Part shown: positions 14,371 to 26,154 of the stretch, one piece after another
Layout: the number at the start of each line of letters is the position of its first letter
Position numbering within the stretch: the stretch's first letter is position 1
Origin: a virus
Taxonomy: Duplodnaviria; Heunggongvirae; Uroviricota; Caudoviricetes
Virus record (IMG/VR): IMGVR_UViG_2667527592_000008
Direction: 5' to 3' (one strand)
DNA length: 39,041 bases
The notes under the pieces: model-generated
The model's input: the letters and a program-made list of their open reading frames with translations, nothing else
The model's database searches: none
What the model was told of the DNA's origin: nothing
Made by a program: the position numbers and the translations under genes

Positions 14371-15495
14371 TTACTCATCTCCTGCGTAACGGGCGACATC
14401 CTCTGGATCGACGCCCATCATTGAACAAATGGCGATATCAACATCGACGTCATCGCCGGTTTTAATCTGCGCCGGGGCAGGCGACGGCGTTTTGGGTGGT
14501 TTGCCGCCGGTCTGGGTCTGACTGAGCGCAACAAGTTTCGGTGCGTTATCCAGCCAGGACTTAAAGCCGTTGATATCGCGGCTGGCGTAATCTTTCGCCC
14601 AGCCTTCCTGTGCCGGAAGCAGTCGCCCGTCAGACAGCGCCGCCTGAATCAGTGCCCCGGCTTCGGCCTCACCGGACTGTTGCGCCAGTGCGGCATAACG
14701 CCCCTGAAGTTCTTCGAAGGCAGCAAGGGAAATGTGTTTTGACGGGTCATAGGCACTGGCTGACAGGCTGGCGATTTGCTCGTCTTTCTGATTCAGCAGG
14801 GCCAGCAGGCTGACGGATGCCGCCGCCGTTCCCTGACCGTTCGAAATCATGTCAACGACCTTTTGCAGCTCGTTTTTGATATCTTCCGCCGTTGAGGTAA
14901 CCGGGAGGTTAAGCATCCAGCGCAGACTGGACAGCAAATCGTTTAACAGTTCTTCATCCACTGTTGTGGTCTCCGTTTCAGTTGACAGACTCGCCAGACG
15001 GCTGGCCGCAGCCAGCATGACCGCGTCCATACCGTCCAGCGCCGGGGTATTGGTCAGTGCGGCGTGTAACAGTTCGATGACTTCGCCGCGCCGGTTGTAT
15101 CCAAATACCGGGGAAATAAATTTGTACTCACCGGCGGCAATCATGGCCGCCGCGTTCTCCGTCCACTCCACACCGATGGCATACAGGCCCGAACCTTCAC
15201 GCCATTCCACCTGGCTGAACCAGCCCGCCGCCGGTGCGGGCTTGCCGTTGTTTACGGCGCGCAGCGTCTGATGTTCGTAATCAATGACAAAAGGCGTGGC
15301 GCGGGCGGCCACCTGTGCGACAAGCTGCGCGGCCAGTTCAGCAGTCAGCACCCATTTACCGCTTTCGACTTCATCGGTATGTGGGCGACCATCCACCGCG
15401 CTGAACTCGCCTGCCGGTAACAGCTGGATTTCGCTGTGGGTTGCTTTAGTAATTTCGAGGCTTAACGCCGCAATTTTCAGTTTCATACGCGGCAT
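14371..15495 (-). CDS. Prohead protease/scaffold protein (Mu I-like)
   Basis: About 374 aa; MPRMKLKIAALSLEITKATHSEIQLLPAGEFSAVDGRP N-terminus typical of Mu I proteins. Start uncertain (GTG at 15540 or ATG at 15495/15486), none with a clear ribosome-binding site. Confidence 0.75.
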   Translation of the reverse strand: MPRMKLKIAALSLEITKATHSEIQLLPAGEFSAVDGRPHTDEVESGKWVLTAELAAQLVAQVAARATPFVIDYEHQTLRAVNNGKPAPAAGWFSQVEWREGSGLYAIGVEWTENAAAMIAAGEYKFISPVFGYNRRGEVIELLHAALTNTPALDGMDAVMLAAASRLASLSTETETTTVDEELLNDLLSSLRWMLNLPVTSTAEDIKNELQKVVDMISNGQGTAAASVSLLALLNQKDEQIASLSASAYDPSKHISLAAFEELQGRYAALAQQSGEAEAGALIQAALSDGRLLPAQEGWAKDYASRDINGFKSWLDNAPKLVALSQTQTGGKPPKTPSPAPAQIKTGDDVDVDIAICSMMGVDPEDVARYAGDE

Positions 15496-15514
15496 GATGA
15501 CGGAAGGGGAAGCC

Positions 15515-15544
15515 GGGGTACTGTGGAGGGTGTTCAGCACCCTG
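15515..15544. repeat. Copy 1 of conserved palindromic element GGGGTACTGTGGAGGGTGTTCAGCACCCTG
   Basis: Directly visible; inverted repeat GGGTG-TTCAG-CACCC. Lies at the 5' edge of the protease/scaffold gene, downstream of an AT-rich palindromic tract (15574..15603). Confidence 0.6.
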
Positions 15545-15695
15545 CCATAACGCGAAAGGATAAAAGGGGAAATAAAACCGTTTTTAAAACCCTTTTAAAA
15601 ACGATTCTGACGGCATTTATGGGATGCGGTGCTGTTATGCCTCATCCATGAAGCGTTTATGCTGTCACAGCCGATTACAGCGCGTTTGTCGCCAT

Positions 15696-17410: not shown

Positions 17411-18992
17411 TCAGTCGCCCCCAGATATCCGCCACAAAGAATGCCTGCGTCAGCAACTGCCGCAACGTTTCATCCGGCAGCTCCGGCCACGCTTCCGCCA
17501 GTACGTTCATAGCCTCGTCTGCATCCCGGCCTTCCTGTATGGCCTGCACCAGTGGGGCCACCAGTTCGTTCATCCCCTGCGCGATGGCCTCTGCCGGAAG
17601 CTCTGCCCGGTCGATGGCGTTCTGTGCCGGGTCGTCCTCCCCGTTGTCCTGCTGACTGAGTGCGGCAACATTCATCCGCTCACGCAGCTGGCTGAGGCCA
17701 GCCTGCACAGGGAGAGACTGTGCCACCGGCACCAGCACCTCTTCGCCGTCTTTCGGGGTGGGGATGCCGGTTTTTTTGCGCACCCACGACGCCGGGATAT
17801 CCTTCATCCCCACATTGTTGAGCAACACGCTGACGGCTTCCGCCACGCCCTTAATGTCAGCTTCCTGCTGCACATCAAACACCAGGCGCGGAAGACGGCG
17901 TGACGGGATATCCTGCCAGCCGTTGAGACTGGCCATCATCTGTATCAGACTGCTGAACATGCCGGACAGCTGGCGTGCATCAGCGGTCAGAATGTCGTGC
18001 CGGACCTCGTTATGGACATTACCCAGTGCGTTGGTGGAGGTTTTACCGTCGGCCTGGCTGGTCAGCGTACTGCCCAGAATCACTTTTGAGGTGGTACGCT
18101 CCGCCCATTCCACCATCGACATGAACGCCTCCGGTCCGCCGGATGCGGCTTCCTTGAACTCGATTTCGTTACCCTGCGGCAGGGCTGCCACCGCTTCATG
18201 ACCCAGATTGACCAGCGCCTCAAGAATGTTATCCCGGTCTTCGTCACTGGTGCCCTGTGCATAGTACGCAATGCGCGCTGGAAGACCGTAAATCTCCAGA
18301 AATTCCGCCATATCACGCAGCGCAAAGTTTTTAAACAGATACGGCCAGACCAGTACGCGGAACAGGCCGGATGAACCCAGGAACCCCGACCGGGCGTTGT
18401 AACGGTGAACTAGCCAGCCGAACGGCCACAATGCGGAACCGTCCTTACCGTCTTCCCCACGGTTGCCGTCATCCAGCCGGAGTTCGTCATTGTGTTCCGG
18501 CAGAGTTATGAACCAGTTATGCGGGCGCAGCGTCACCGCATCCGGTAACCATGTTTTATCCACGAACGCCCAGCTGATTTCCTGACAGCTGAAGCCGTAA
18601 CCGACACTGCTCATCCCGTTGAGGATGATGTCCTCCATGTCCGGGATGCCGTGCAGCCATTCATCCACGGCGGCGGCCAGCTCCTTTTCTGCCTTCGAGG
18701 CATTGCGGGGCGGCTCCACCGACCAGTCCAGCGTCAGCAACGCTTTTTTGCGCTTTTCCATCTCGGCGAACAGATGGCCATCACGTTCTTCCATATCCGC
18801 AAACAGCATCGCCTGCGCCGGAAGATAACCGCGTTCGGCTGCTTCCAGAATACGCGGCAGTTTTCTGATGTTCAGACCACGGGACGGGTGATCGGGATAG
18901 ATGCGCAGTCGTTCCGCCACTCTGACCGACTGCGTTGTTTTGAGTGCCTCACGTTTCAGCGGGCGTCCGTAAATATCAACAAGCTGTGCCAT
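17397..18992 (-). CDS. Portal protein (Mu gp29/H-like, DUF935 type)
   Basis: 531 aa ORF directly downstream of the large terminase gene; N-terminus MAQLVDIYGRPLKREALKTTQSVRVAERLRIYPDHP is typical of Mu-like portals. Confidence 0.9.
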   Translation of the reverse strand: MAQLVDIYGRPLKREALKTTQSVRVAERLRIYPDHPSRGLNIRKLPRILEAAERGYLPAQAMLFADMEERDGHLFAEMEKRKKALLTLDWSVEPPRNASKAEKELAAAVDEWLHGIPDMEDIILNGMSSVGYGFSCQEISWAFVDKTWLPDAVTLRPHNWFITLPEHNDELRLDDGNRGEDGKDGSALWPFGWLVHRYNARSGFLGSSGLFRVLVWPYLFKNFALRDMAEFLEIYGLPARIAYYAQGTSDEDRDNILEALVNLGHEAVAALPQGNEIEFKEAASGGPEAFMSMVEWAERTTSKVILGSTLTSQADGKTSTNALGNVHNEVRHDILTADARQLSGMFSSLIQMMASLNGWQDIPSRRLPRLVFDVQQEADIKGVAEAVSVLLNNVGMKDIPASWVRKKTGIPTPKDGEEVLVPVAQSLPVQAGLSQLRERMNVAALSQQDNGEDDPAQNAIDRAELPAEAIAQGMNELVAPLVQAIQEGRDADEAMNVLAEAWPELPDETLRQLLTQAFFVADIWGRLNADC

Positions 18993-21925: not shown

Positions 21926-22167
21926 TAAGTGTCCTTCTGAGCCTGTTCAATCCTGCGCTGAACTTCGTCGGGATTTTCAAGAACAAACACGTTTTTCCCG
22001 GTATCCAGTTCAATGACCGTGCCATCATGTGTACCGTACTGACGGTAAAAATGGGTGATGCGTTCAGCGAGCACCATGACAGCGCCAGCACCTCCTGAAC
22101 CTCTGTATTCTGTAAATCTGATAATGCTCACTGTGTCAGACCTTCGAAAAATCAGTTCTGTGAACAC
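21925..22167 (-). CDS. Hypothetical protein
   Basis: 80 aa ORF between the lipoprotein gene and the gp27-like gene, with overlapping start and stop; actual start uncertain. Confidence 0.4.
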   Translation of the reverse strand: MFTELIFRRSDTVSIIRFTEYRGSGGAGAVMVLAERITHFYRQYGTHDGTVIELDTGKNVFVLENPDEVQRRIEQAQKDT

Positions 22168-22334
22168 TGCCGGATGCCGTCAATAATCCGGCAGACCTGC
22201 GCCGCCGCGTCTAACAGCTGTCCCGTTCTGTTAATGTCTGTGCATCCCACCGGAAGCAACATCACCAGAAACAGGGCCAGAACACAGCGCGCGGCTTTAC
22301 GTGGCGTTCTGTGGGTCCAGTGCTGACGCGTCAT
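22152..22334 (-). CDS. Small lipoprotein, possible outer-membrane spanin component
   Basis: 60 aa with a hydrophobic segment followed by LLPVGC (lipobox-like); start overlaps the endolysin stop. Confidence 0.45.
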   Translation of the reverse strand: MTRQHWTHRTPRKAARCVLALFLVMLLPVGCTDINRTGQLLDAAAQVCRIIDGIRQCSQN

Positions 22335-22876
22335 ATCGCCACGCGCTCCTTCAGCCAGCCATAAACAAACGATTCGTTAGCCTCGCGTTTCTCCGCCAGT
22401 TCCAGATAGCGGTCCCCCTGCGTACAGTTCAGGGCCGTCAGCATCACCCGTTCACCGTCCTGACCGCGATTATTCAGGAAGGCGCGCAATGCACTGATGG
22501 TACGAGGCCCGATGCGTCCGTCTGCGTCCATATCCGGGTACAGCCTGCCGCGCAGATTGAACACATTCAGCCAGCGCTGAAGCATTCTGGACGCCACGGT
22601 TGGCCCCATATTCACACCGGTATCACACAGCTCTGCGGCAATATCAGGGGATAATGCGGCGACCTGGTCGAATCGCGGACCGTACCAGTAATCGGCTTCA
22701 AGGATGTCCAGCGCCTGCTCGCGGGTTAAATCGCGCATATCACCACGGTATCCGTGGGCACGGGCGACTTTTTCCGTAATGCCCCATTTGGTCGGACCGC
22801 CCTTATCATCCGGGTGATTGACATAACCACCTTCTTTGCCCAGGACTTCATCAAAAATTTTATCTTTTGATTTCAT
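22331..22876 (-). CDS. Endolysin: GH108-family lysozyme with C-terminal peptidoglycan-binding domain
   Basis: N-terminal FDEVLGKEGGYVNHPDDKGGPTKWGIT is the glycoside hydrolase 108 signature; the C-terminal half resembles PG_binding_3. Follows two small membrane-protein genes. Confidence 0.85.
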   Translation of the reverse strand: MKSKDKIFDEVLGKEGGYVNHPDDKGGPTKWGITEKVARAHGYRGDMRDLTREQALDILEADYWYGPRFDQVAALSPDIAAELCDTGVNMGPTVASRMLQRWLNVFNLRGRLYPDMDADGRIGPRTISALRAFLNNRGQDGERVMLTALNCTQGDRYLELAEKREANESFVYGWLKERVAI

Positions 22877-23162
22877 GTGGATGCCTCAGTAACGAAAGGA
22901 TTTTTGACAAATTCCCGTGCGCCCACACGATAAGCGCACAGAAAACCAGATTCAGCGCCACAACCAGCCAGCTGGAATGTGTGTACGTACCGGACAGCCA
23001 GCGGAACGGGATGATGACGTAGCCGAGCATCAGCCAGTACGCCAGCCAGGTAATCATCGGTTTATGCGCTGCACCGTGGCGGCGATACACAAACAACCCC
23101 AGCACAATGGCGAGACACAGCCAGACGTTCACGATACCGGCAAGGCTACTTTCCATTTCCAC
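22860..23162 (-). CDS. Small membrane protein with three predicted transmembrane segments (holin/antiholin candidate)
   Basis: 100 aa with three hydrophobic stretches (LAGIVNVWLCLAIVLGLFVY, MITWLAYWLMLGYVIIPF, WLVVALNLVFCALIVWAHG); immediately upstream of the endolysin gene. Confidence 0.55.
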   Translation of the reverse strand: MEMESSLAGIVNVWLCLAIVLGLFVYRRHGAAHKPMITWLAYWLMLGYVIIPFRWLSGTYTHSSWLVVALNLVFCALIVWAHGNLSKILSLLRHPHEIKR

Positions 23163-23538
23163 CCCCTCCGCCGCGCAGTCTGGAAAACAGGCCGAACAGC
23201 GATGAAATTTCCTGTTGATAAAGAAAGGTCAGTATCTTGATGGATAACGCCGAGACACCGACCGCACACAATGCATCGAGTGGCTTGTCGTTGTAGTGGG
23301 TCAGCCACTGCATCAGTGACGCAGCCACGCCAGCCCCCAGAACGCCAACCACAAACGCGACGAGCAGGTGGATAGCCATTCGCCATACCGGGATTTCTTT
23401 CTGCTGCGTGACAACAAAAAGCGCTCCGGCAAACGCGCCCACCACAACCCCGAAATCGGTATTGGTGAGAAGGCCAAACACACTGGCACCACCGATGGTG
23501 ACTGCCACAGCTCCGCCGCCTGATAAGGGTTCAGACAT
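23146..23538 (-). CDS. Small membrane protein (holin candidate), first gene of the lysis block
   Basis: Start moved to the ATG preceded by AGGAGAAA (MSEPLSGGG...); glycine/alanine-rich hydrophobic segments and a glycine-rich C-terminus. The ORF track extends to 23598. Confidence 0.55.
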   Translation of the reverse strand: MSEPLSGGGAVAVTIGGASVFGLLTNTDFGVVVGAFAGALFVVTQQKEIPVWRMAIHLLVAFVVGVLGAGVAASLMQWLTHYNDKPLDALCAVGVSALSIKILTFLYQQEISSLFGLFSRLRGGGGGNGK

Positions 23539-23674
23539 GAGTTTCTCCTGTAAATCTGAGCCACTGACGGCCCGTAAATAACACCCGGTCAAAGGCACAG
23601 AATGACTTTTGCCGGGCGCTATCCCTTAAGGTGCCTTGTGGTCTGAGTGGACAGGGTAAACGGTATGCTGTGGT

Positions 23675-23704
23675 GGGTACTGCTGGGGGTGTTCAGCACC
23701 CCCG
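23675..23704. repeat. Copy 2 of conserved palindromic element GGGTACTGCTGGGGGTGTTCAGCACCCCCG
   Basis: Directly visible; 7-bp inverted repeat GGGGGTG-TTCAG-CACCCCC. About 140 bp upstream of the first lysis gene; near-identical to the copy at 15515..15544. Confidence 0.65.
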
Positions 23705-23726
23705 GCAGGTTGATTATCTGGATGGG

Positions 23727-24014
23727 TTAAAGAGAAGCGAGTTTTAATGGTGGCTTATAACATGCCCGCGCCAGCAGGTTAGCTCTTTCCACGGCATTAC
23801 GCATTTCCCGTTCTGCGTCAATCATTCTGTTTACGGCTGACAGCACTTCATCATGATTCGTTACTGATTCCGGGCTTTGGGCCTGTTTCGCCAGGTAACT
23901 GGATAAACTGCACATTTCAGCATGTCGGCGACGGGCTGCATCCCGGGCCTTGTCTGAAAATGCGGTATATTCACCGAGTACTGCATAGTCGATATCGGTG
24001 TCAGAACGCATCAT
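23727..24014 (-). CDS. Hypothetical protein in the position of Mu C
   Basis: 95 aa ORF with a strong ribosome-binding site (AAGGAGA, seven-nucleotide spacer, ATG) immediately after the Mor-gene terminator; no recognisable helix-turn-helix. Confidence 0.5.
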   Translation of the reverse strand: MMRSDTDIDYAVLGEYTAFSDKARDAARRRHAEMCSLSSYLAKQAQSPESVTNHDEVLSAVNRMIDAEREMRNAVERANLLARACYKPPLKLASL

Positions 24015-24040
24015 TTCGTGTCTCCTTTTTTCTGAGGCCC

Positions 24041-24075
24041 ATTAATCAAAAAGCCCCACCTGGGTGGGGCTTTTC
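24041..24075 (-). terminator. Intrinsic terminator overlapping the 3' end of the Mor/C-like gene
   Basis: Minus strand reads GCCCCACC-CAGG-TGGGGC then TTTTTGATTAA, with the stop codon inside the U-tract; the plus strand also shows a T-run after the stem. Confidence 0.7.
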
Positions 24076-24509
24076 AGCGAAGTCTGTTTTTGTCGTCGGT
24101 GTATCAGTTGCCATGCGTACCGGTCTGAAATGCCGTAACGGGGACAGAGCAGTGCCAGCGCCTGCCGGTGTGAGCATCCGCCTTTTACATGCTGCTGTAA
24201 ATCAGCCATAAAACGGGTGTTACGCAGGGCACGTAACGCATGATCGCAACGGGGAATGTAAAACGGTGCGCCGCCAAGAAAACGGATCAGTTTGTTGATT
24301 TCGTCTTCGGTCAGCACGTCATGTAACAGGGCATGGACACCGCCGGTGCGTTCGGCGTGTACGCCGGTTTTACCGCTTAACGTCACGCCACCAAAAGAAC
24401 GAATCAACCGGGTCAGGGCGGGGAAGCCAATCACGCTAATCAGTTGCTGCACGGAATCGGGCAGCAGTGCCTGCGCATCGCGAAGATCTGTTTCACTGAA
24501 GGTCTGCAT
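24042..24509 (-). CDS. Mor/C-family transcriptional activator
   Basis: 155 aa; C-terminal region GGAPFYIPRCDHALRALRNTRFMADL...LCPRYGISDRYAWQLIHRRQ follows the Mor/C helix-turn-helix pattern. Located after the GemA-like gene, as Mor is in Mu. Confidence 0.8.
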   Translation of the reverse strand: MQTFSETDLRDAQALLPDSVQQLISVIGFPALTRLIRSFGGVTLSGKTGVHAERTGGVHALLHDVLTEDEINKLIRFLGGAPFYIPRCDHALRALRNTRFMADLQQHVKGGCSHRQALALLCPRYGISDRYAWQLIHRRQKQTSLKSPTQVGLFD

Positions 24510-24608
24510 GATGGCGTCTCCGGTAGTAACTTACTGTTATTATAGCCATACATGATCGCCTGTACAGACCATAAAAAACCTCCGCGTTTGCGAAGGTTTT
24601 TGTTCATA

Positions 24609-24947
24609 TTATTTTTTATTCTCGTTTATCAACACCAGGTATCCTCTGACATACTCCCATACTTTCTGGTTATCTGTTGGATGCACTTTTCGACAATCTA
24701 TGGCTTCATTTCCATAATCGCCAATGTCAGCTTGGGCTTGTGTTAAGAGAATAACCTTCCTGAGAGCGCATCCTCTGATGGTATCCTTTGAAATATCATC
24801 CCAGCCATTCATGTATGAATAAGCCAGATTACGTTGTGCCTGATAATCGCCCTGTAATGTTTTTTTGACCAAATCTTCCTCTGAATCAGAAGCATGGGAT
24901 ATCCCTGTAAAACATAAAGTCAGAATAAGTAATAACAGTTTTTTCAT
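24609..24947 (-). CDS. Secreted protein with signal peptide (AT-rich moron; loosely Sel1/TPR-like)
   Basis: 112 aa with N-terminal MKKLLLLILTLCFTGISHA signal-like segment. The gene is visibly more AT-rich than its neighbours and sits between the GemA-like and Mor-like genes. Confidence 0.6.
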   Translation of the reverse strand: MKKLLLLILTLCFTGISHASDSEEDLVKKTLQGDYQAQRNLAYSYMNGWDDISKDTIRGCALRKVILLTQAQADIGDYGNEAIDCRKVHPTDNQKVWEYVRGYLVLINENKK

Positions 24948-25339
24948 TTACGTCTCCTTGAATCTTTAACCAGCGCCACCATCACTCCAAAAAGCTGTTC
25001 ATCCGTCAGCCATTCGATCACATGTTGCTTATACATGTGAGATGCCAGTCCTTCTGCATACGCCCAAGAACGACCGGCATCAGCCAGCAACGCTTCAATT
25101 TTGGATAATACTGATTTTCTGCTCATTGCAACACGAGGGCGGCGACCTTTACCAGCGGGTGCCTTGCGCGGGAATCCCTGTTCGTGCATGTATTCCCGGA
25201 TGATGCGCAGTTCATCGAGATTGCAGCGTGTGGTGCTGGTTTTACCGGTCAGGCGGGCCAGCGTCTGGCGATAAAGGGCATCATCCCACCCCAGATACGC
25301 CTGACCAGCTTTAATGGCCCCGATCATCTTTTTCAGCAT
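24944..25339 (-). CDS. GemA-like protein (Mu gp16 / DUF1018 family)
   Basis: Start taken at MLKKMIGAIKAGQ; the pattern LARLTGKTSTTRCNLDELRIIREYMHEQGF...GRRPRV..SR...KIEALLADAGRSWAYA...HM...EWLTDEQL matches GemA/DUF1018. The ORF track extends to 25438. Confidence 0.75.
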   Translation of the reverse strand: MLKKMIGAIKAGQAYLGWDDALYRQTLARLTGKTSTTRCNLDELRIIREYMHEQGFPRKAPAGKGRRPRVAMSRKSVLSKIEALLADAGRSWAYAEGLASHMYKQHVIEWLTDEQLFGVMVALVKDSRRRK

Positions 25340-25589
25340 GTTTGTTATCCTCAAAACGCACGGTAAAACGTGAAACGCCAATCCCTGACAAGAACGCAGC
25401 GGCACGGTCAAGAGACAACCACGTCTTGTAATCGCCACGGCGTTCCTGTAGAAAATAGGACACCCCGGCGCGGCGATTCACAGCGAAGAGATGATACACA
25501 CCACCGAACCGCTGCACGACGAACTCATCCACGCCACCGCTTTCAGCCTGTTGCCGAAAGGCTGCCATTCCGATTTGTTCAATCTTCAT
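25311..25589 (-). CDS. Hypothetical early protein
   Basis: About 92 aa from the ATG at 25589 (the ORF track uses a TTG at 25598); overlaps the GemA-like start. No family recognised. Confidence 0.45.
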   Translation of the reverse strand: MKIEQIGMAAFRQQAESGGVDEFVVQRFGGVYHLFAVNRRAGVSYFLQERRGDYKTWLSLDRAAAFLSGIGVSRFTVRFEDNKHAEKDDRGH

Positions 25590-25594
25590 AATGA

Positions 25595-25634
25595 CCAAAA
25601 CACTACTTTTGGCAGACCAAAAAACATGTTTTGG
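25595..25634. promoter_or_regulatory. Two tandem CCAAAA-N6-TTTTGG palindromes (operator-like)
   Basis: CCAAAACACTACTTTTGG and CCAAAAAACATGTTTTGG with centres about 22 bp apart, just upstream of the gene starting at 25589. Confidence 0.45.
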
Positions 25635-25743
25635 CCTGCATTTGATTACTGTTTAAACAACTCGCGAAATCAGGAACGTCGAGTTTCGGTGATGGCTTTC
25701 ATCGTGTTGTTGCTCCGTGATTCAGAAAATTTCATGCCGGGCC

Positions 25744-26154
25744 TCAGTATGTGAAATAGACAGTTGCCACGCCGTTATAGTGATCAAACGACACGGCGTT
25801 TACCTCATAACTGGCCGGTAGCTTCGAGCCAAGAACGTATCCGGGCCACGTTTTCCATGGAATTTCTCTGCTCTCACTGTCGCCATATACCGTACATCCC
25901 AGTGAGCCTACAGCTTCATAAGAACGCTTACCGCACGTTATGAACCCCAGATGTTGCTTACTGCCCTTAACAGAAATCGGGAGAGCACTGGCTGATGCGT
26001 TAGCAGCGTCCCGCTCCTGTTGGCTTGCGATATTCGCAGAGTTTGCAGCAGCTACAGCAGCCGTGGTCGCAGCGGCAGATGCCACAATAACTGCTGAAGC
26101 CTGCGTATGTTGGGTAATGGTTAGCAATGCCGCCACAAAAATCATTTTCTTCAC
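25744..26154 (-). CDS. Secreted protein with signal peptide, unknown function
   Basis: 136 aa; N-terminal MKKMIFVAALLTITQHTQA followed by an Ala/Ser/Thr-rich linker and a cysteine-containing C-terminal domain. Confidence 0.55.
   Translation of the reverse strand: MKKMIFVAALLTITQHTQASAVIVASAAATTAAVAAANSANIASQQERDAANASASALPISVKGSKQHLGFITCGKRSYEAVGSLGCTVYGDSESREIPWKTWPGYVLGSKLPASYEVNAVSFDHYNGVATVYFTY

Follow-up and report, generated by a model that had tools for sequence, protein, structure and literature searches.

In phage Mu, late gene expression is reached through a relay of two activators, in which Mor acts at the middle promoter Pm and C acts at the late ones, Plys, PI, PP and Pmom, and this relay is the textbook scheme for the Mor/C family. 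Three small ORFs lie between mor and C, and C abuts lys. The described C sites are centred at -43.5, at promoters with no -35 element (PMC2582627), and Mu C requires a clamp-binding motif with the consensus QPDLF for late transcription (PMC12867686). Ho and Harshey drew a parallel between Mu and T4, and Mu has no known equivalent of gp33 (PMC12867686); we use late transcription in T4 (gp55/gp33, with gp45 as the clamp) as an analogy only, for its dependence on a sliding clamp and its small helical co-factor, gp33. In surveys of transposable phages, "Mor/C" figures as a single core late regulator (PMC8705779, PMC4378225).

Layout of the locus and its likeness to Mu

The window (the whole 39,041-nt stretch of DNA analysed here) carries a Mu-like (transposable) E. 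coli prophage, whose right end lies <1 kb past window position 1, the content there being tail-fibre sequence only. The genes of positions 23675-24509 are on the minus strand, and all four elements that the initial annotation had noted there (an activator, a terminator, a 95-aa ORF and a palindrome) are found where it had placed them (Table 1). Megablast of positions 23000-25500 against phage records gave no match, and Rfam matches on positions 22000-26000 were sub-threshold only, all of them on terminator hairpins.

Table 1. Features of the locus and of the late boxes, in window coordinates
Feature	Position	Strand	Basis or remark
Late box 3	3612..3624	-	Between baseplate V and gp46 genes, PP-like
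Late box 2	15528..15540	-	Ahead of head protease gene, PI-like
First holin gene	23146..23538	-	Pfam Phage_holin_8 5e-25; start per RefSeq; first late gene downstream
-10-like hexamer TACCCT (predicted)	23653..23658	-	38-43 nt past C of CTGAAC
Palindrome/hairpin closing the activator/95-aa unit	23680..23708	-	dG -21, z = -4.2; overlaps late box 1
Late box 1, 13 bp, GTGCTGAACACCC	23687..23699	-	Ahead of holin/lysis operon, Plys-like
95-aa two-helix hairpin protein, phrog_7152	23727..24014	-	Family search, AlphaFold2, gene context
Shine-Dalgarno AAGGAG of 95-aa ORF	24022..24027	-	Read from sequence; 7 nt before ATG
Mor/C-family activator, 155 aa	24042..24509	-	Pfam, PHROG, six-frame profile search, bootstrap grouping
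Codons for clamp-binding motif QVGLF (residues 150-154)	24048..24062	-	Family alignment; PMC12867686
Intrinsic terminator within activator's last 10 codons	24048..24075	-	dG -20.6 kcal/mol, z = -4.3
Sigma-70-type promoter of activator gene (predicted)	24539..24566	-	TGTACA, 16 nt, TATAAT; 10/12 consensus match
Intrinsic terminator ending early (gemA + cargo) transcript (predicted)	24574..24601	-	dG -15.8, z = -5.0, then U6
Sel1-like secreted cargo gene, 112 aa	24609..24947	-	phrog_5882, function unknown
GemA-like gene	24944..25339	-	Pfam GemA 2.8e-18; RefSeq "gp16 family protein"; last conserved early gene

The locus shares with Mu the activator's protein family, the gemA-activator-lysis neighbourhood, a C-terminal QxxLF clamp-binding motif, and predicted late promoters with a -10 and no -35, which stand before the lysis, head-protease and baseplate genes. 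In both, terminator hairpins overlap activator boxes (in Mu, right after mor and after C). It differs from Mu in five respects: there is one activator rather than two; the activator's promoter looks like a sigma-70 type with a -35, whereas that of Mu is activator-dependent; the terminator falls within the coding region rather than past the stop codon; the small ORF is downstream of the activator, whereas E18, E19 and gp20 of Mu are upstream of C; and the box is GTGCTGAACACCC rather than a TTAT..ATAA dyad.

SuMu (Haemophilus), Klebsiella phage ST405-OXA48phi1.1 and the Pseudomonas D3112/MP22 group share the activator's subfamily (phrog_836, at 31-41% identity), and we found no late-transcription studies of them in the literature searched. 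As in the window, the one Mor/C gene of SuMu and of the Klebsiella phage is flanked by gemA and the lysis genes, and boxes are repeated at the same three late operon starts. Unlike the window, these two phages and the MP22 group have neither the 95-aa protein family nor an embedded terminator, and the Klebsiella phage also has no insulated promoter. Closest to the window in both activator and 95-aa protein are two related prophages, L012 and L027, which have boxes of the same family (CTGAACNCC) but retain an extra paralogue in the Mor position.

The single Mor/C activator and its late boxes

The 155-aa activator matches Pfam Mor (PF08765) with 28.5 bits (cut-off 24.9; E=1.6e-6) and phrog_836, "late transcriptional activator", at 3.5e-42, and its family membership is based on these two profiles. 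RefSeq names it "Mor transcription activator family protein", and direct phmmer comparison with the PDB picked up Mu C only weakly, along the GG..YIP linker (E=0.5). GGxxxYIP is the glycine-rich beta-strand linker that joins the dimerisation domain to the C-terminal helix-turn-helix in the Mor/C family, and it is kept here (FLGGAPFYIPR, corresponding to FLGGRQFYIPC in Mu C and HLGGGQVYIPR in Mu Mor). At the C-terminus, the QVGLF sequence aligns with QPDLF of Mu C. Q150 and L153 are invariant in the family alignment and F154 is nearly so, and the QxxLF pattern is near-invariant at this end across 13 family members. An N-terminal motif of the form Qx[DE][LM]F is not present in the 155-aa protein.

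A Mor/C profile built on 13 proteins, with Mu Mor and Mu C among them, was run against every stop-to-stop segment in six frames. Its sole match is 24045-24530(-), at E=8e-61, with a runner-up at E>1; as a positive control, the same profile recovers two genes in Mu. This agrees with the initial annotation, which had seen only one Mor/C homologue and had named a second one elsewhere in the prophage as the result that would overturn its reading; the six-frame search finds none. Its further suggestion, that the late cascade may be wired differently from Mu, stands in part. The two-step Mor-to-C relay of Mu is impossible here, but a single activator is not unusual, and most Mu-like phages carry one. 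The profile finds one gene each in the whole genomes of SuMu and the Klebsiella phage, there is one matching place in the annotated 5.4-kb stretch of the MP22/D3112 group, and tblastn with the activator gave a single matching place in each of the phage records matched (136/136).

The question of which activator has been kept was approached through the two-paralogue relatives, L012 and L027. The window activator is 51% and 49% identical to their lysis-side paralogues, versus only 37% and 33% to their gemA-side paralogues, and it groups with the lysis-side proteins in 192 of 200 bootstraps (96%). Judged by these identities and this grouping, the single activator is the C-position gene (the lysis-proximal orthologue), and the absent gene is the Mor-position one. 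The initial annotation had the C position taken by an unrelated protein, and this does not hold, since the activator itself groups with the C-position paralogues. The surroundings match the role of C in Mu, with the gene beside the lysis operon and boxes ahead of the late operons. They do not match the role of Mor: gemA is followed by a cargo gene, then a terminator, then a promoter before the activator is reached, and there is no second Mor/C gene for it to activate.

The box GTGCTGAACACCC occurs in three exact copies on the gene strand, compared to 0.12 expected with <=1 mismatch. The spacing between box and predicted -10-like hexamer seen at box 1 recurs at boxes 2 and 3, and also in L011, L012 and the Klebsiella phage, and this fixed spacing agrees with the described geometry of C sites (PMC2582627). 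In the Klebsiella phage, a related box, CCACTGAAGCCC, is found at the same three late places, and SuMu has a lineage-specific box there (GTGGAA-N5-TTCC). From position and spacing, we predict that the activator binds these boxes at promoters with a -10 but no -35.

Terminators and the activator promoter

The embedded terminator has the G+C-rich stem, short loop and adjoining U-run of an intrinsic terminator, and overlaps the activator's last codons as originally described. Its hairpin is GAAAAGCCCCAC-CCAG-GUGGGGCUUUUU, followed by GAUUAA, with a 7-bp GC core (GCCCCAC/GUGGGGC), the 4-nt loop CCAG and U5 (CUUUUUGAUU); A-U and G-U pairs lengthen the stem to 12 bp, into the U-run. None of 200 shuffles folded as well. 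A consensus terminator scanner did not report this hairpin, because the stem was extended into the U-run. The same nucleotides code for ...KSPTQVGLFD and the stop codon, and so include the clamp-binding motif. In L011, whose activator is 58% identical, the structure is preserved by two compensatory pairs (A-U to G-C and C-G to U-A), which turn T-Q-V of the protein into V-Q-T; this compensatory support comes from one independent lineage. The embedded terminator is absent from L009, L012 and L026, and is therefore not essential to the module.

Upstream of the activator, the cargo gene sits in the slot that is held by the Mor-position paralogue in the two-activator relatives. In L003 another ORF, of 154 aa, takes its place within surrounding DNA that is 94-100% identical. 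Relatives have a hairpin at the same place as the early terminator that follows the cargo gene, but it is unlike in sequence. The predicted activator promoter comes next, where L012 instead has CTGAAC boxes before its second activator gene. A palindrome, CCTGTACAGG, spans the -35, and GATC occurs in the spacer. The promoter block hardly varies among the window, L003, L004 and L011, the last of which is divergent.

Nothing resembling a repressor operator was found at this promoter. The promoter was considered as a repressor or LexA site and rejected: the operator repeats at 33988-34027 are unrelated to it; CTGTACAG has its sole other exact copy at 36988, beyond the prophage; and its spacing is wrong for a LexA box.

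Alternatively, the activator could come mainly from early transcription that partly reads through the upstream terminator, as for Mu mor, with leaky terminators alone setting the timing. The activator gene does abut or overlap gemA, with no promoter, in L009 and the Klebsiella phage, type B loci have a terminator ahead of the run of small gene, gemA and mor, and the promoter match taken alone is not above chance, since a promoter scan found 2 sites with 4.5 expected. We nevertheless regard read-through as an improbable main route, for the window and L011 share the ~42-bp block with TGTACA-16-TATAAT almost unchanged, despite 58% activator identity and unrelated upstream hairpins.

It is likely that the locus is built from one C-type activator, an insulated promoter, an embedded terminator and three late boxes, as the sequence features indicate. 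For the fuller explanation, of a "middle" regulatory unit with one tier of Mor/C-type activation, we put the chances at about even, taking the explanation as a whole. According to this explanation, the early transcript would meet the intrinsic terminator just past the cargo gene, and the sigma-70-type promoter would then serve the sole Mor/C gene that it precedes. Like Mu C at Plys, PI and PP, the activator would bind the late box around -52 to -40 and would thereby directly switch on every late operon. Most transcripts would be halted past the activator gene by the embedded terminator, which would shield the lysis genes from early or middle transcription, leaving a minority of transcripts to reach the 95-aa gene.

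The 95-aa protein and what the locus means

The 95-aa ORF starts with an ATG 27 nt past the activator stop, and its AAGGAG bears out the strong initiation noted for it. In the window, the stretch from the activator gene to this ORF contains neither an activator box nor a promoter. The AlphaFold2 model (mean pLDDT 84) consists of two long helices, residues 10-46 and 54-85, with no helix-turn-helix, again as first described, and by residue count the net charge is approximately zero. Had the protein proved to be a divergent Mor/C member, the picture of a single activator would have fallen; it is unrelated, with a profile-profile probability of 0.05% by hhalign and no match from the Mor profile.

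Other comparisons of this protein gave little. There was no tblastn match in phage records and no BLASTP alignment with Mu E18 or E19; of the family libraries, Pfam gave a sub-threshold match to GBP_C only and NCBIfam none; and a PDB profile search was uninformative. Fold searches of the PDB and BFVD returned generic antiparallel helical hairpins only (E > 0.07), among them the Uup C-terminal domain, membrane-fusion proteins and designed bundles. A clamp-binding motif was looked for in the C-terminal tail of the family and rejected, there being neither a Q nor a match to QL[SD]LF or QLxLxL. By eye, the tail has a hydrophobic-x-hydrophobic-x-x-L/F pattern.

A reading that builds on the initial annotation would make the Mor/C protein a Mor-like middle step and the 95-aa protein the true late activator at the palindrome promoters. 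The ORF does come after the activator gene and before the first late palindrome, and its ribosome-binding site is strong. The two-helix structure, which has no helix-turn-helix and a net charge of about zero, and the lack of kinship to Mor/C argue against this role, however, as does the fact that the ORF is reached only through terminator read-through. The late box is almost unchanged where 95-aa alleles are just 45% identical, SuMu and the Klebsiella phage box the same three late operon starts with no such protein, and the 155-aa activator is itself the orthologue of C-position paralogues. Together these make this reading very improbable indeed. By position, the ORF resembles the small middle-operon ORFs of Mu rather than C, as judged from the Mu gene order described above. 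The 95-aa protein probably serves as a modulator or in an accessory capacity rather than as an activator.

An exhaustive HMMER search reached family members of 31-46% identity, where a word-indexed search gave only those of >=75%, and the family now has 25 representatives, with identity down to 31%. A scan of species-representative genomes gave one locus. The family gene adjoins Mor/C or gemA in approximately 40 of 42 loci, which represent three gene orders. A terminator is found 25-37 nt upstream of it in most lineages, and the order of terminator, ~30 nt and ORF is seen in two unrelated contexts. Among members that are 31-46% identical, the conserved residues gather at one end of the hairpin, which fits one conserved partner.

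These three observations (adjacency, terminator arrangement and clustered conservation) speak against a view in which the ORF is accessory cargo, e.g., host-directed or anti-defence, in a permissive slot between two terminators, with no role in late transcription and with its nearness to mor reflecting where permissive slots exist in Mu-like genomes. Several other properties favour that view. Within DNA that is otherwise 94-100% identical, the ORF makes up one of two slots of mosaic replacement, and its alleles show 45% identity in prophages where the activators show 99%. It is missing from phages that share the activator subfamily and the layout of boxes, truncated copies occur in some E. coli genomes, and in L007/L008 the gene follows one with no NCBIfam match, away from mor; family annotation and an informative fold match are also lacking. 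We consider the cargo view possible, if on the unlikely side. Given the variable alleles, the L007/L008 position and the absences, a dedicated partnership with the activator is only a possibility, and a modulator role is likewise put forward tentatively. In our preferred explanation, the 95-aa protein would be a low-abundance, protein-binding companion of the gemA-mor block rather than a stand-in for C, most likely tuning the switch (through the activator, the sliding clamp or RNA polymerase) or hitting a host target.

A more specific and rather doubtful proposal is that the family is an unrecognised co-factor or anti-factor of clamp-dependent Mor/C late transcription, in a role like that of T4 gp33 or of an anti-activator, and that the terminator in the clamp-motif codons is a timing device. 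The 95-aa protein shares neither sequence nor a specific fold with gp33, and no clamp-binding motif is recognised in its family. If the proposal were true, the protein's partner would be the activator, the beta clamp or RNA polymerase, read-through of the terminator ahead of it would set its dose, and the terminator in the clamp-motif codons would time a one-activator switch.

The locus is a modest variant of a layout common among Mu relatives, in which C has not been replaced. Current understanding is not overturned; what is corrected is the first reading, in that the missing tier is Mor and not C. The locus would offer a compact one-tier switch, with a defined promoter, a clamp motif at the C-terminus only, three identical 13-bp boxes and a terminator overlaid on the motif, which places an RNA-structure constraint on that peptide. 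It also flags a small conserved family beside gemA/mor.

Identity of the single Mor/C-family activator

The window encodes a single Mor/C-family activator which, judged by its sequence kinship, is a C-type gene, not a Mor-type one. A profile of 13 Mor/C proteins, Mu Mor and Mu C among them, was compared with all six-frame stop-to-stop segments of at least 30 aa, and its sole match is at 24045-24530 on the - strand (E=8e-61; next best E>1). The same profile recovers both Mor/C genes in Mu, so it is able to see distant paralogues. The initial annotation had counted one Mor/C homologue, and a second was found neither in this six-frame search of the window nor at the right end of the prophage, <1 kb past window position 1, where there is nothing but tail-fibre sequence.

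The initial annotation also assigned the C position to an unrelated protein of 95 aa, but the gene in this position is that of the activator itself. Mu has the order gemA, mor, E18, E19, gp20, C, lys, so that C abuts the lysis genes and three small ORFs lie between mor and C. Two related loci have two Mor/C paralogues, in the order gemA, Mor1, 148-aa ORF, Mor2, small protein, lysis (L012) or small protein, Mor1, two small ORFs, Mor2, holin, lysozyme (L027). The activator shares 51% and 49% identity with the lysis-side paralogues of these loci, versus 37% and 33% with the gemA-side ones, and a neighbour-joining tree clusters it with both lysis-side paralogues and with the proteins of two other related loci, L011 and L026 (192 of 200 bootstraps). 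By this grouping, the gene absent from the window is the one of the Mor position. Mu Mor and Mu C fall outside the group, so the duplication in L012 and L027 is separate from that of Mu. A single activator is the usual state among Mu relatives. The earlier interpretation is thus retained for the single Mor/C gene and the unrelatedness of the 95-aa protein, but not for the C position.

Judged by a 100% match to 2.5 kb of the window (23000-25500), the prophage is present in 58 of 5,426 complete E. coli genomes. One copy, as annotated in RefSeq, is a Mu-like transposable prophage with every gene on the window's - strand, in the order repressor, ner-like, transposase A, B, about 20 small early genes, GemA, Mor-family protein, two holins, GH108 endolysin, terminase, portal, head, tail and baseplate. 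Its host site is the capsid gene of another prophage: past the left end, 34978-39041 belongs to a lambdoid prophage with an interrupted major capsid gene, into which the Mu-like element has transposed. An inverted repeat of 18 bp (TATCCGTGCGGATAACAC / GTGTTATCCCTTCGGATA, 33988-34027) lies between the repressor gene and the ner-like gene, and probably represents operators for the repressor or for Ner in the early promoter region. Directly behind the endolysin gene is a 60-aa ORF (22152-22334, - strand) with a lipobox-like LLPVGC and a match to phrog_7528 (function unknown), which may be a spanin component.

Features of the regulatory region and putative late promoters
Feature	Position	Strand	Details
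Activator ORF	24042-24509	-	155 aa; Pfam Mor above gathering score; PHROG 836 'late transcriptional activator', 3.5e-42
Intrinsic terminator, Mor slot	24574-24601	-	z = -5.0
Sigma-70-type promoter of activator, TGTACA-16-TATAAT	within 24539-24575 block	-	promoter scan; match alone not above chance
Embedded terminator, GAAAAGCCCCAC-CCAG-GUGGGGCUUUUU	24048-24075	-	-20.6 kcal/mol; z = -4.3; as good in 0/200 shuffles
Palindrome	23680-23708	-	downstream of 95-aa ORF; contains GTGCTGAACACCC
Late box 1	23687-23699	-	upstream of holin gene; counterpart of Mu Plys
Late box 2	15528-15540	-	upstream of head protease gene; counterpart of Mu PI
Late box 3	3612-3624	-	between baseplate V and gp46 genes; roughly counterpart of Mu PP

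The Mor slot and the embedded terminator

Directly after gemA, the Mor slot holds a cargo gene, an intrinsic terminator and a sigma-70-type promoter. The cargo gene encodes a 112-aa secreted Sel1-like protein and is swapped for a different, 154-aa ORF in the related prophage L003. The window and L003 differ in two mosaic slots with sharp bounds. One (24601-24950) is filled by these two ORFs and the other (23705-24010) by two alleles of the small protein, 45% identical; the DNA elsewhere is 94-100% identical. L011 has almost the same promoter block, of about 42 bp, despite an activator that is only 58% identical and an unrelated upstream hairpin; over 24539-24575, the block is near-invariant in L003, L004, L011 and the window. 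A perfect 10-bp palindrome, CCTGTACAGG, lies across the -35, and the spacer includes a Dam site (GATC); the block may be the binding site of a regulator or a methylation-sensitive promoter. In a comparison with the prophage's operator repeats, no similarity was seen. Elsewhere, gemA abuts the activator gene (L009), or two CTGAACNCCTTC boxes precede the second activator gene in place of the sigma-70-type promoter (L012).

The terminator described over the last codons of the activator gene is confirmed by its predicted fold, and sits inside the codons K-S-P-T-Q-V-G-L-F-D-stop. Mu C requires two clamp-binding motifs for late activation, of which the C-terminal one (consensus QPDLF) is common to Mor/C family members (Ho and Harshey, PMC12867686). 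In the 13-member alignment, every sequence has the Q and L of this motif and nearly every one the F, and the activator ends in QVGLFD. The hairpin lies over these codons, with the Q codon in the loop and GTG GGG CTT TTT (V-G-L-F) forming the 3' arm and U-run. The L011 stem has two altered pairs, each of them compensated (A-U to G-C and C-G to U-A), and its peptide reads V-Q-T in place of T-Q-V; one independent lineage thus provides evidence that the RNA structure is under selection. L009, L012 and L026 lack the hairpin, which is therefore a lineage feature and not a requirement of the module. A close relative, L021 (2930-2976), has CTG for CAG in the loop, so that the clamp motif has L in place of Q (SPTLVGLFD) and the hairpin is unaffected; in this naturally occurring variant, the RNA and protein features are uncoupled.

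Late boxes and their putative promoters

The palindromic element reported after the 95-aa ORF is present, and its 13-mer GTGCTGAACACCC occurs in three exact copies, all on the gene strand, versus 0.12 expected (with up to one mismatch). Only box 1 is strongly palindromic and box 3 is not a palindrome, so the conserved feature is a DNA box, not an RNA hairpin. At +38 to +43 from the C of CTGAAC are the -10-like hexamers TACCCT, CATCAT and CAGACT, whose second base is A and whose sixth is T. With this fixed spacing, the box would span about -52 to -40 of promoters that have no -35. The same geometry is described for Mu C, whose site is a 16-bp dyad with its centre at -43.5 and whose required region extends from -52 to -34 (PMC2582627). 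We infer that the single activator binds the three late boxes.

Boxes have comparable positions elsewhere: the related GCTGAACCCCTTC before the lysis genes of L011 and L012 (with TACGCT and TATACT at nearly equal spacing), CCACTGAAGCCC before the lysis, protease and gp46 genes of Klebsiella phage ST405-OXA48phi1.1, and a box of SuMu's own, GTGGAA-N5-TTCC, at the same three late locations. In Mu, a terminator hairpin overlaps an activator box directly after mor and after C, and the window palindrome has this same double character. L003, L011 and L012 have a separate hairpin ahead of the box.

The head protease (15486) and gp46 (3571) starts are 51 and 50 nt downstream of the C in their late boxes (regions 15484-15540 and 3569-3624, - strand), about 7 nt past the hexamers (CATCAT, 15499-15494; CAGACT, 3583-3578), and neither start has a Shine-Dalgarno sequence. 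The box-to-start spacing is the same in the Klebsiella phage (L045, around 18070-18120 and 29750-29805), and the mRNAs of these two late operons may be leaderless. Inverted repeats rich in TTTTAAAA (15575-15606; AACCGTTTTTAAAA / TTTTAAAAACGATT) lie between the G-like gene and the protease gene, where Mu has an annotated strong gyrase site (17879); SuMu and the Klebsiella phage have similar TTTAAAACGGTTTTAAAA runs at this location.

The 95-aa protein and its place in the regulatory block

The 95-aa ORF was correctly described as strongly initiated, starting 27 nt past the activator stop with AAGGAG 7 nt upstream, and as unrelated to Mor/C. Profile-profile comparison with Mor/C gives a probability of 0.05%, and the AlphaFold2 model is an antiparallel two-helix hairpin (pLDDT 84) with no DNA-binding fold. 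The protein matches PHROG 7152 (function unknown) over its full length, with no significant Pfam match and no NCBIfam match, and fold searches return generic hairpins only. An exhaustive HMMER search of 1.8 billion representatives gives a family of 25 proteins (E<=0.001), mostly of 88-99 aa, with identities down to 31%. Its conserved blocks, N-Y-x-A-L-G-E-Y-T-A...D-A-A-x-R-R and E-M-R-A-A-x-x-R-A-N-x-A-A-x-L-C-G, come together at the open end of the modelled hairpin, and the tip is variable.

The small gene occurs in three arrangements among about 40 loci surveyed: directly after the Mor/C gene (the window and L003 clades, L009, L011, L012, L026 and L028), directly before gemA-mor or mor (L016, L027 and L029-L033), or between a pRha gene and a gene without an NCBIfam match (L007/L008). 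In the first two, a canonical terminator is usually 25-37 nt upstream of the small gene start, and in the second it is non-coding. Where the order is small gene, gemA, mor (L029, 2945-3003; also L016, L031, L032 and L033), this non-coding terminator, with arms AAGCCCCGCC...GGCGGGGCTTTTT or AAAGCCCCTC...GAGGGGCTTTTTT, lies about 25-30 nt before the ATG and parallels the window's coding terminator; hairpin and small gene may move together as a single cassette.

The linkage and the recurrence of the terminator favour a function connected with the regulatory block. Between the window and L003, the 95-aa protein differs by 55%, with activators 99% identical and flanking DNA 94-100% identical, and the family is absent from SuMu, MP22 and the Klebsiella phage; this mosaicism and patchy distribution argue for an accessory gene. 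The protein is not a substitute for C: there is no DNA-binding fold and no box or promoter ahead of the ORF, and the late box is almost unchanged between prophages with 45%-identical alleles.

In the mechanism that we propose, early transcription after induction would run up to the Mor-slot terminator, and the activator would be expressed from its own promoter. The embedded terminator would end most transcripts, the remainder passing the 95-aa gene to the hairpin at 23680-23708, and the activator, presumably with the beta clamp as in Mu, would fire the three box promoters. As a whole, the initial observation was correct and its elements are non-random; what is new is the insulation of the activator promoter, the overlap of a terminator with the codons of the clamp-binding motif, and an uncharacterised family of small proteins encoded next to gemA/mor.
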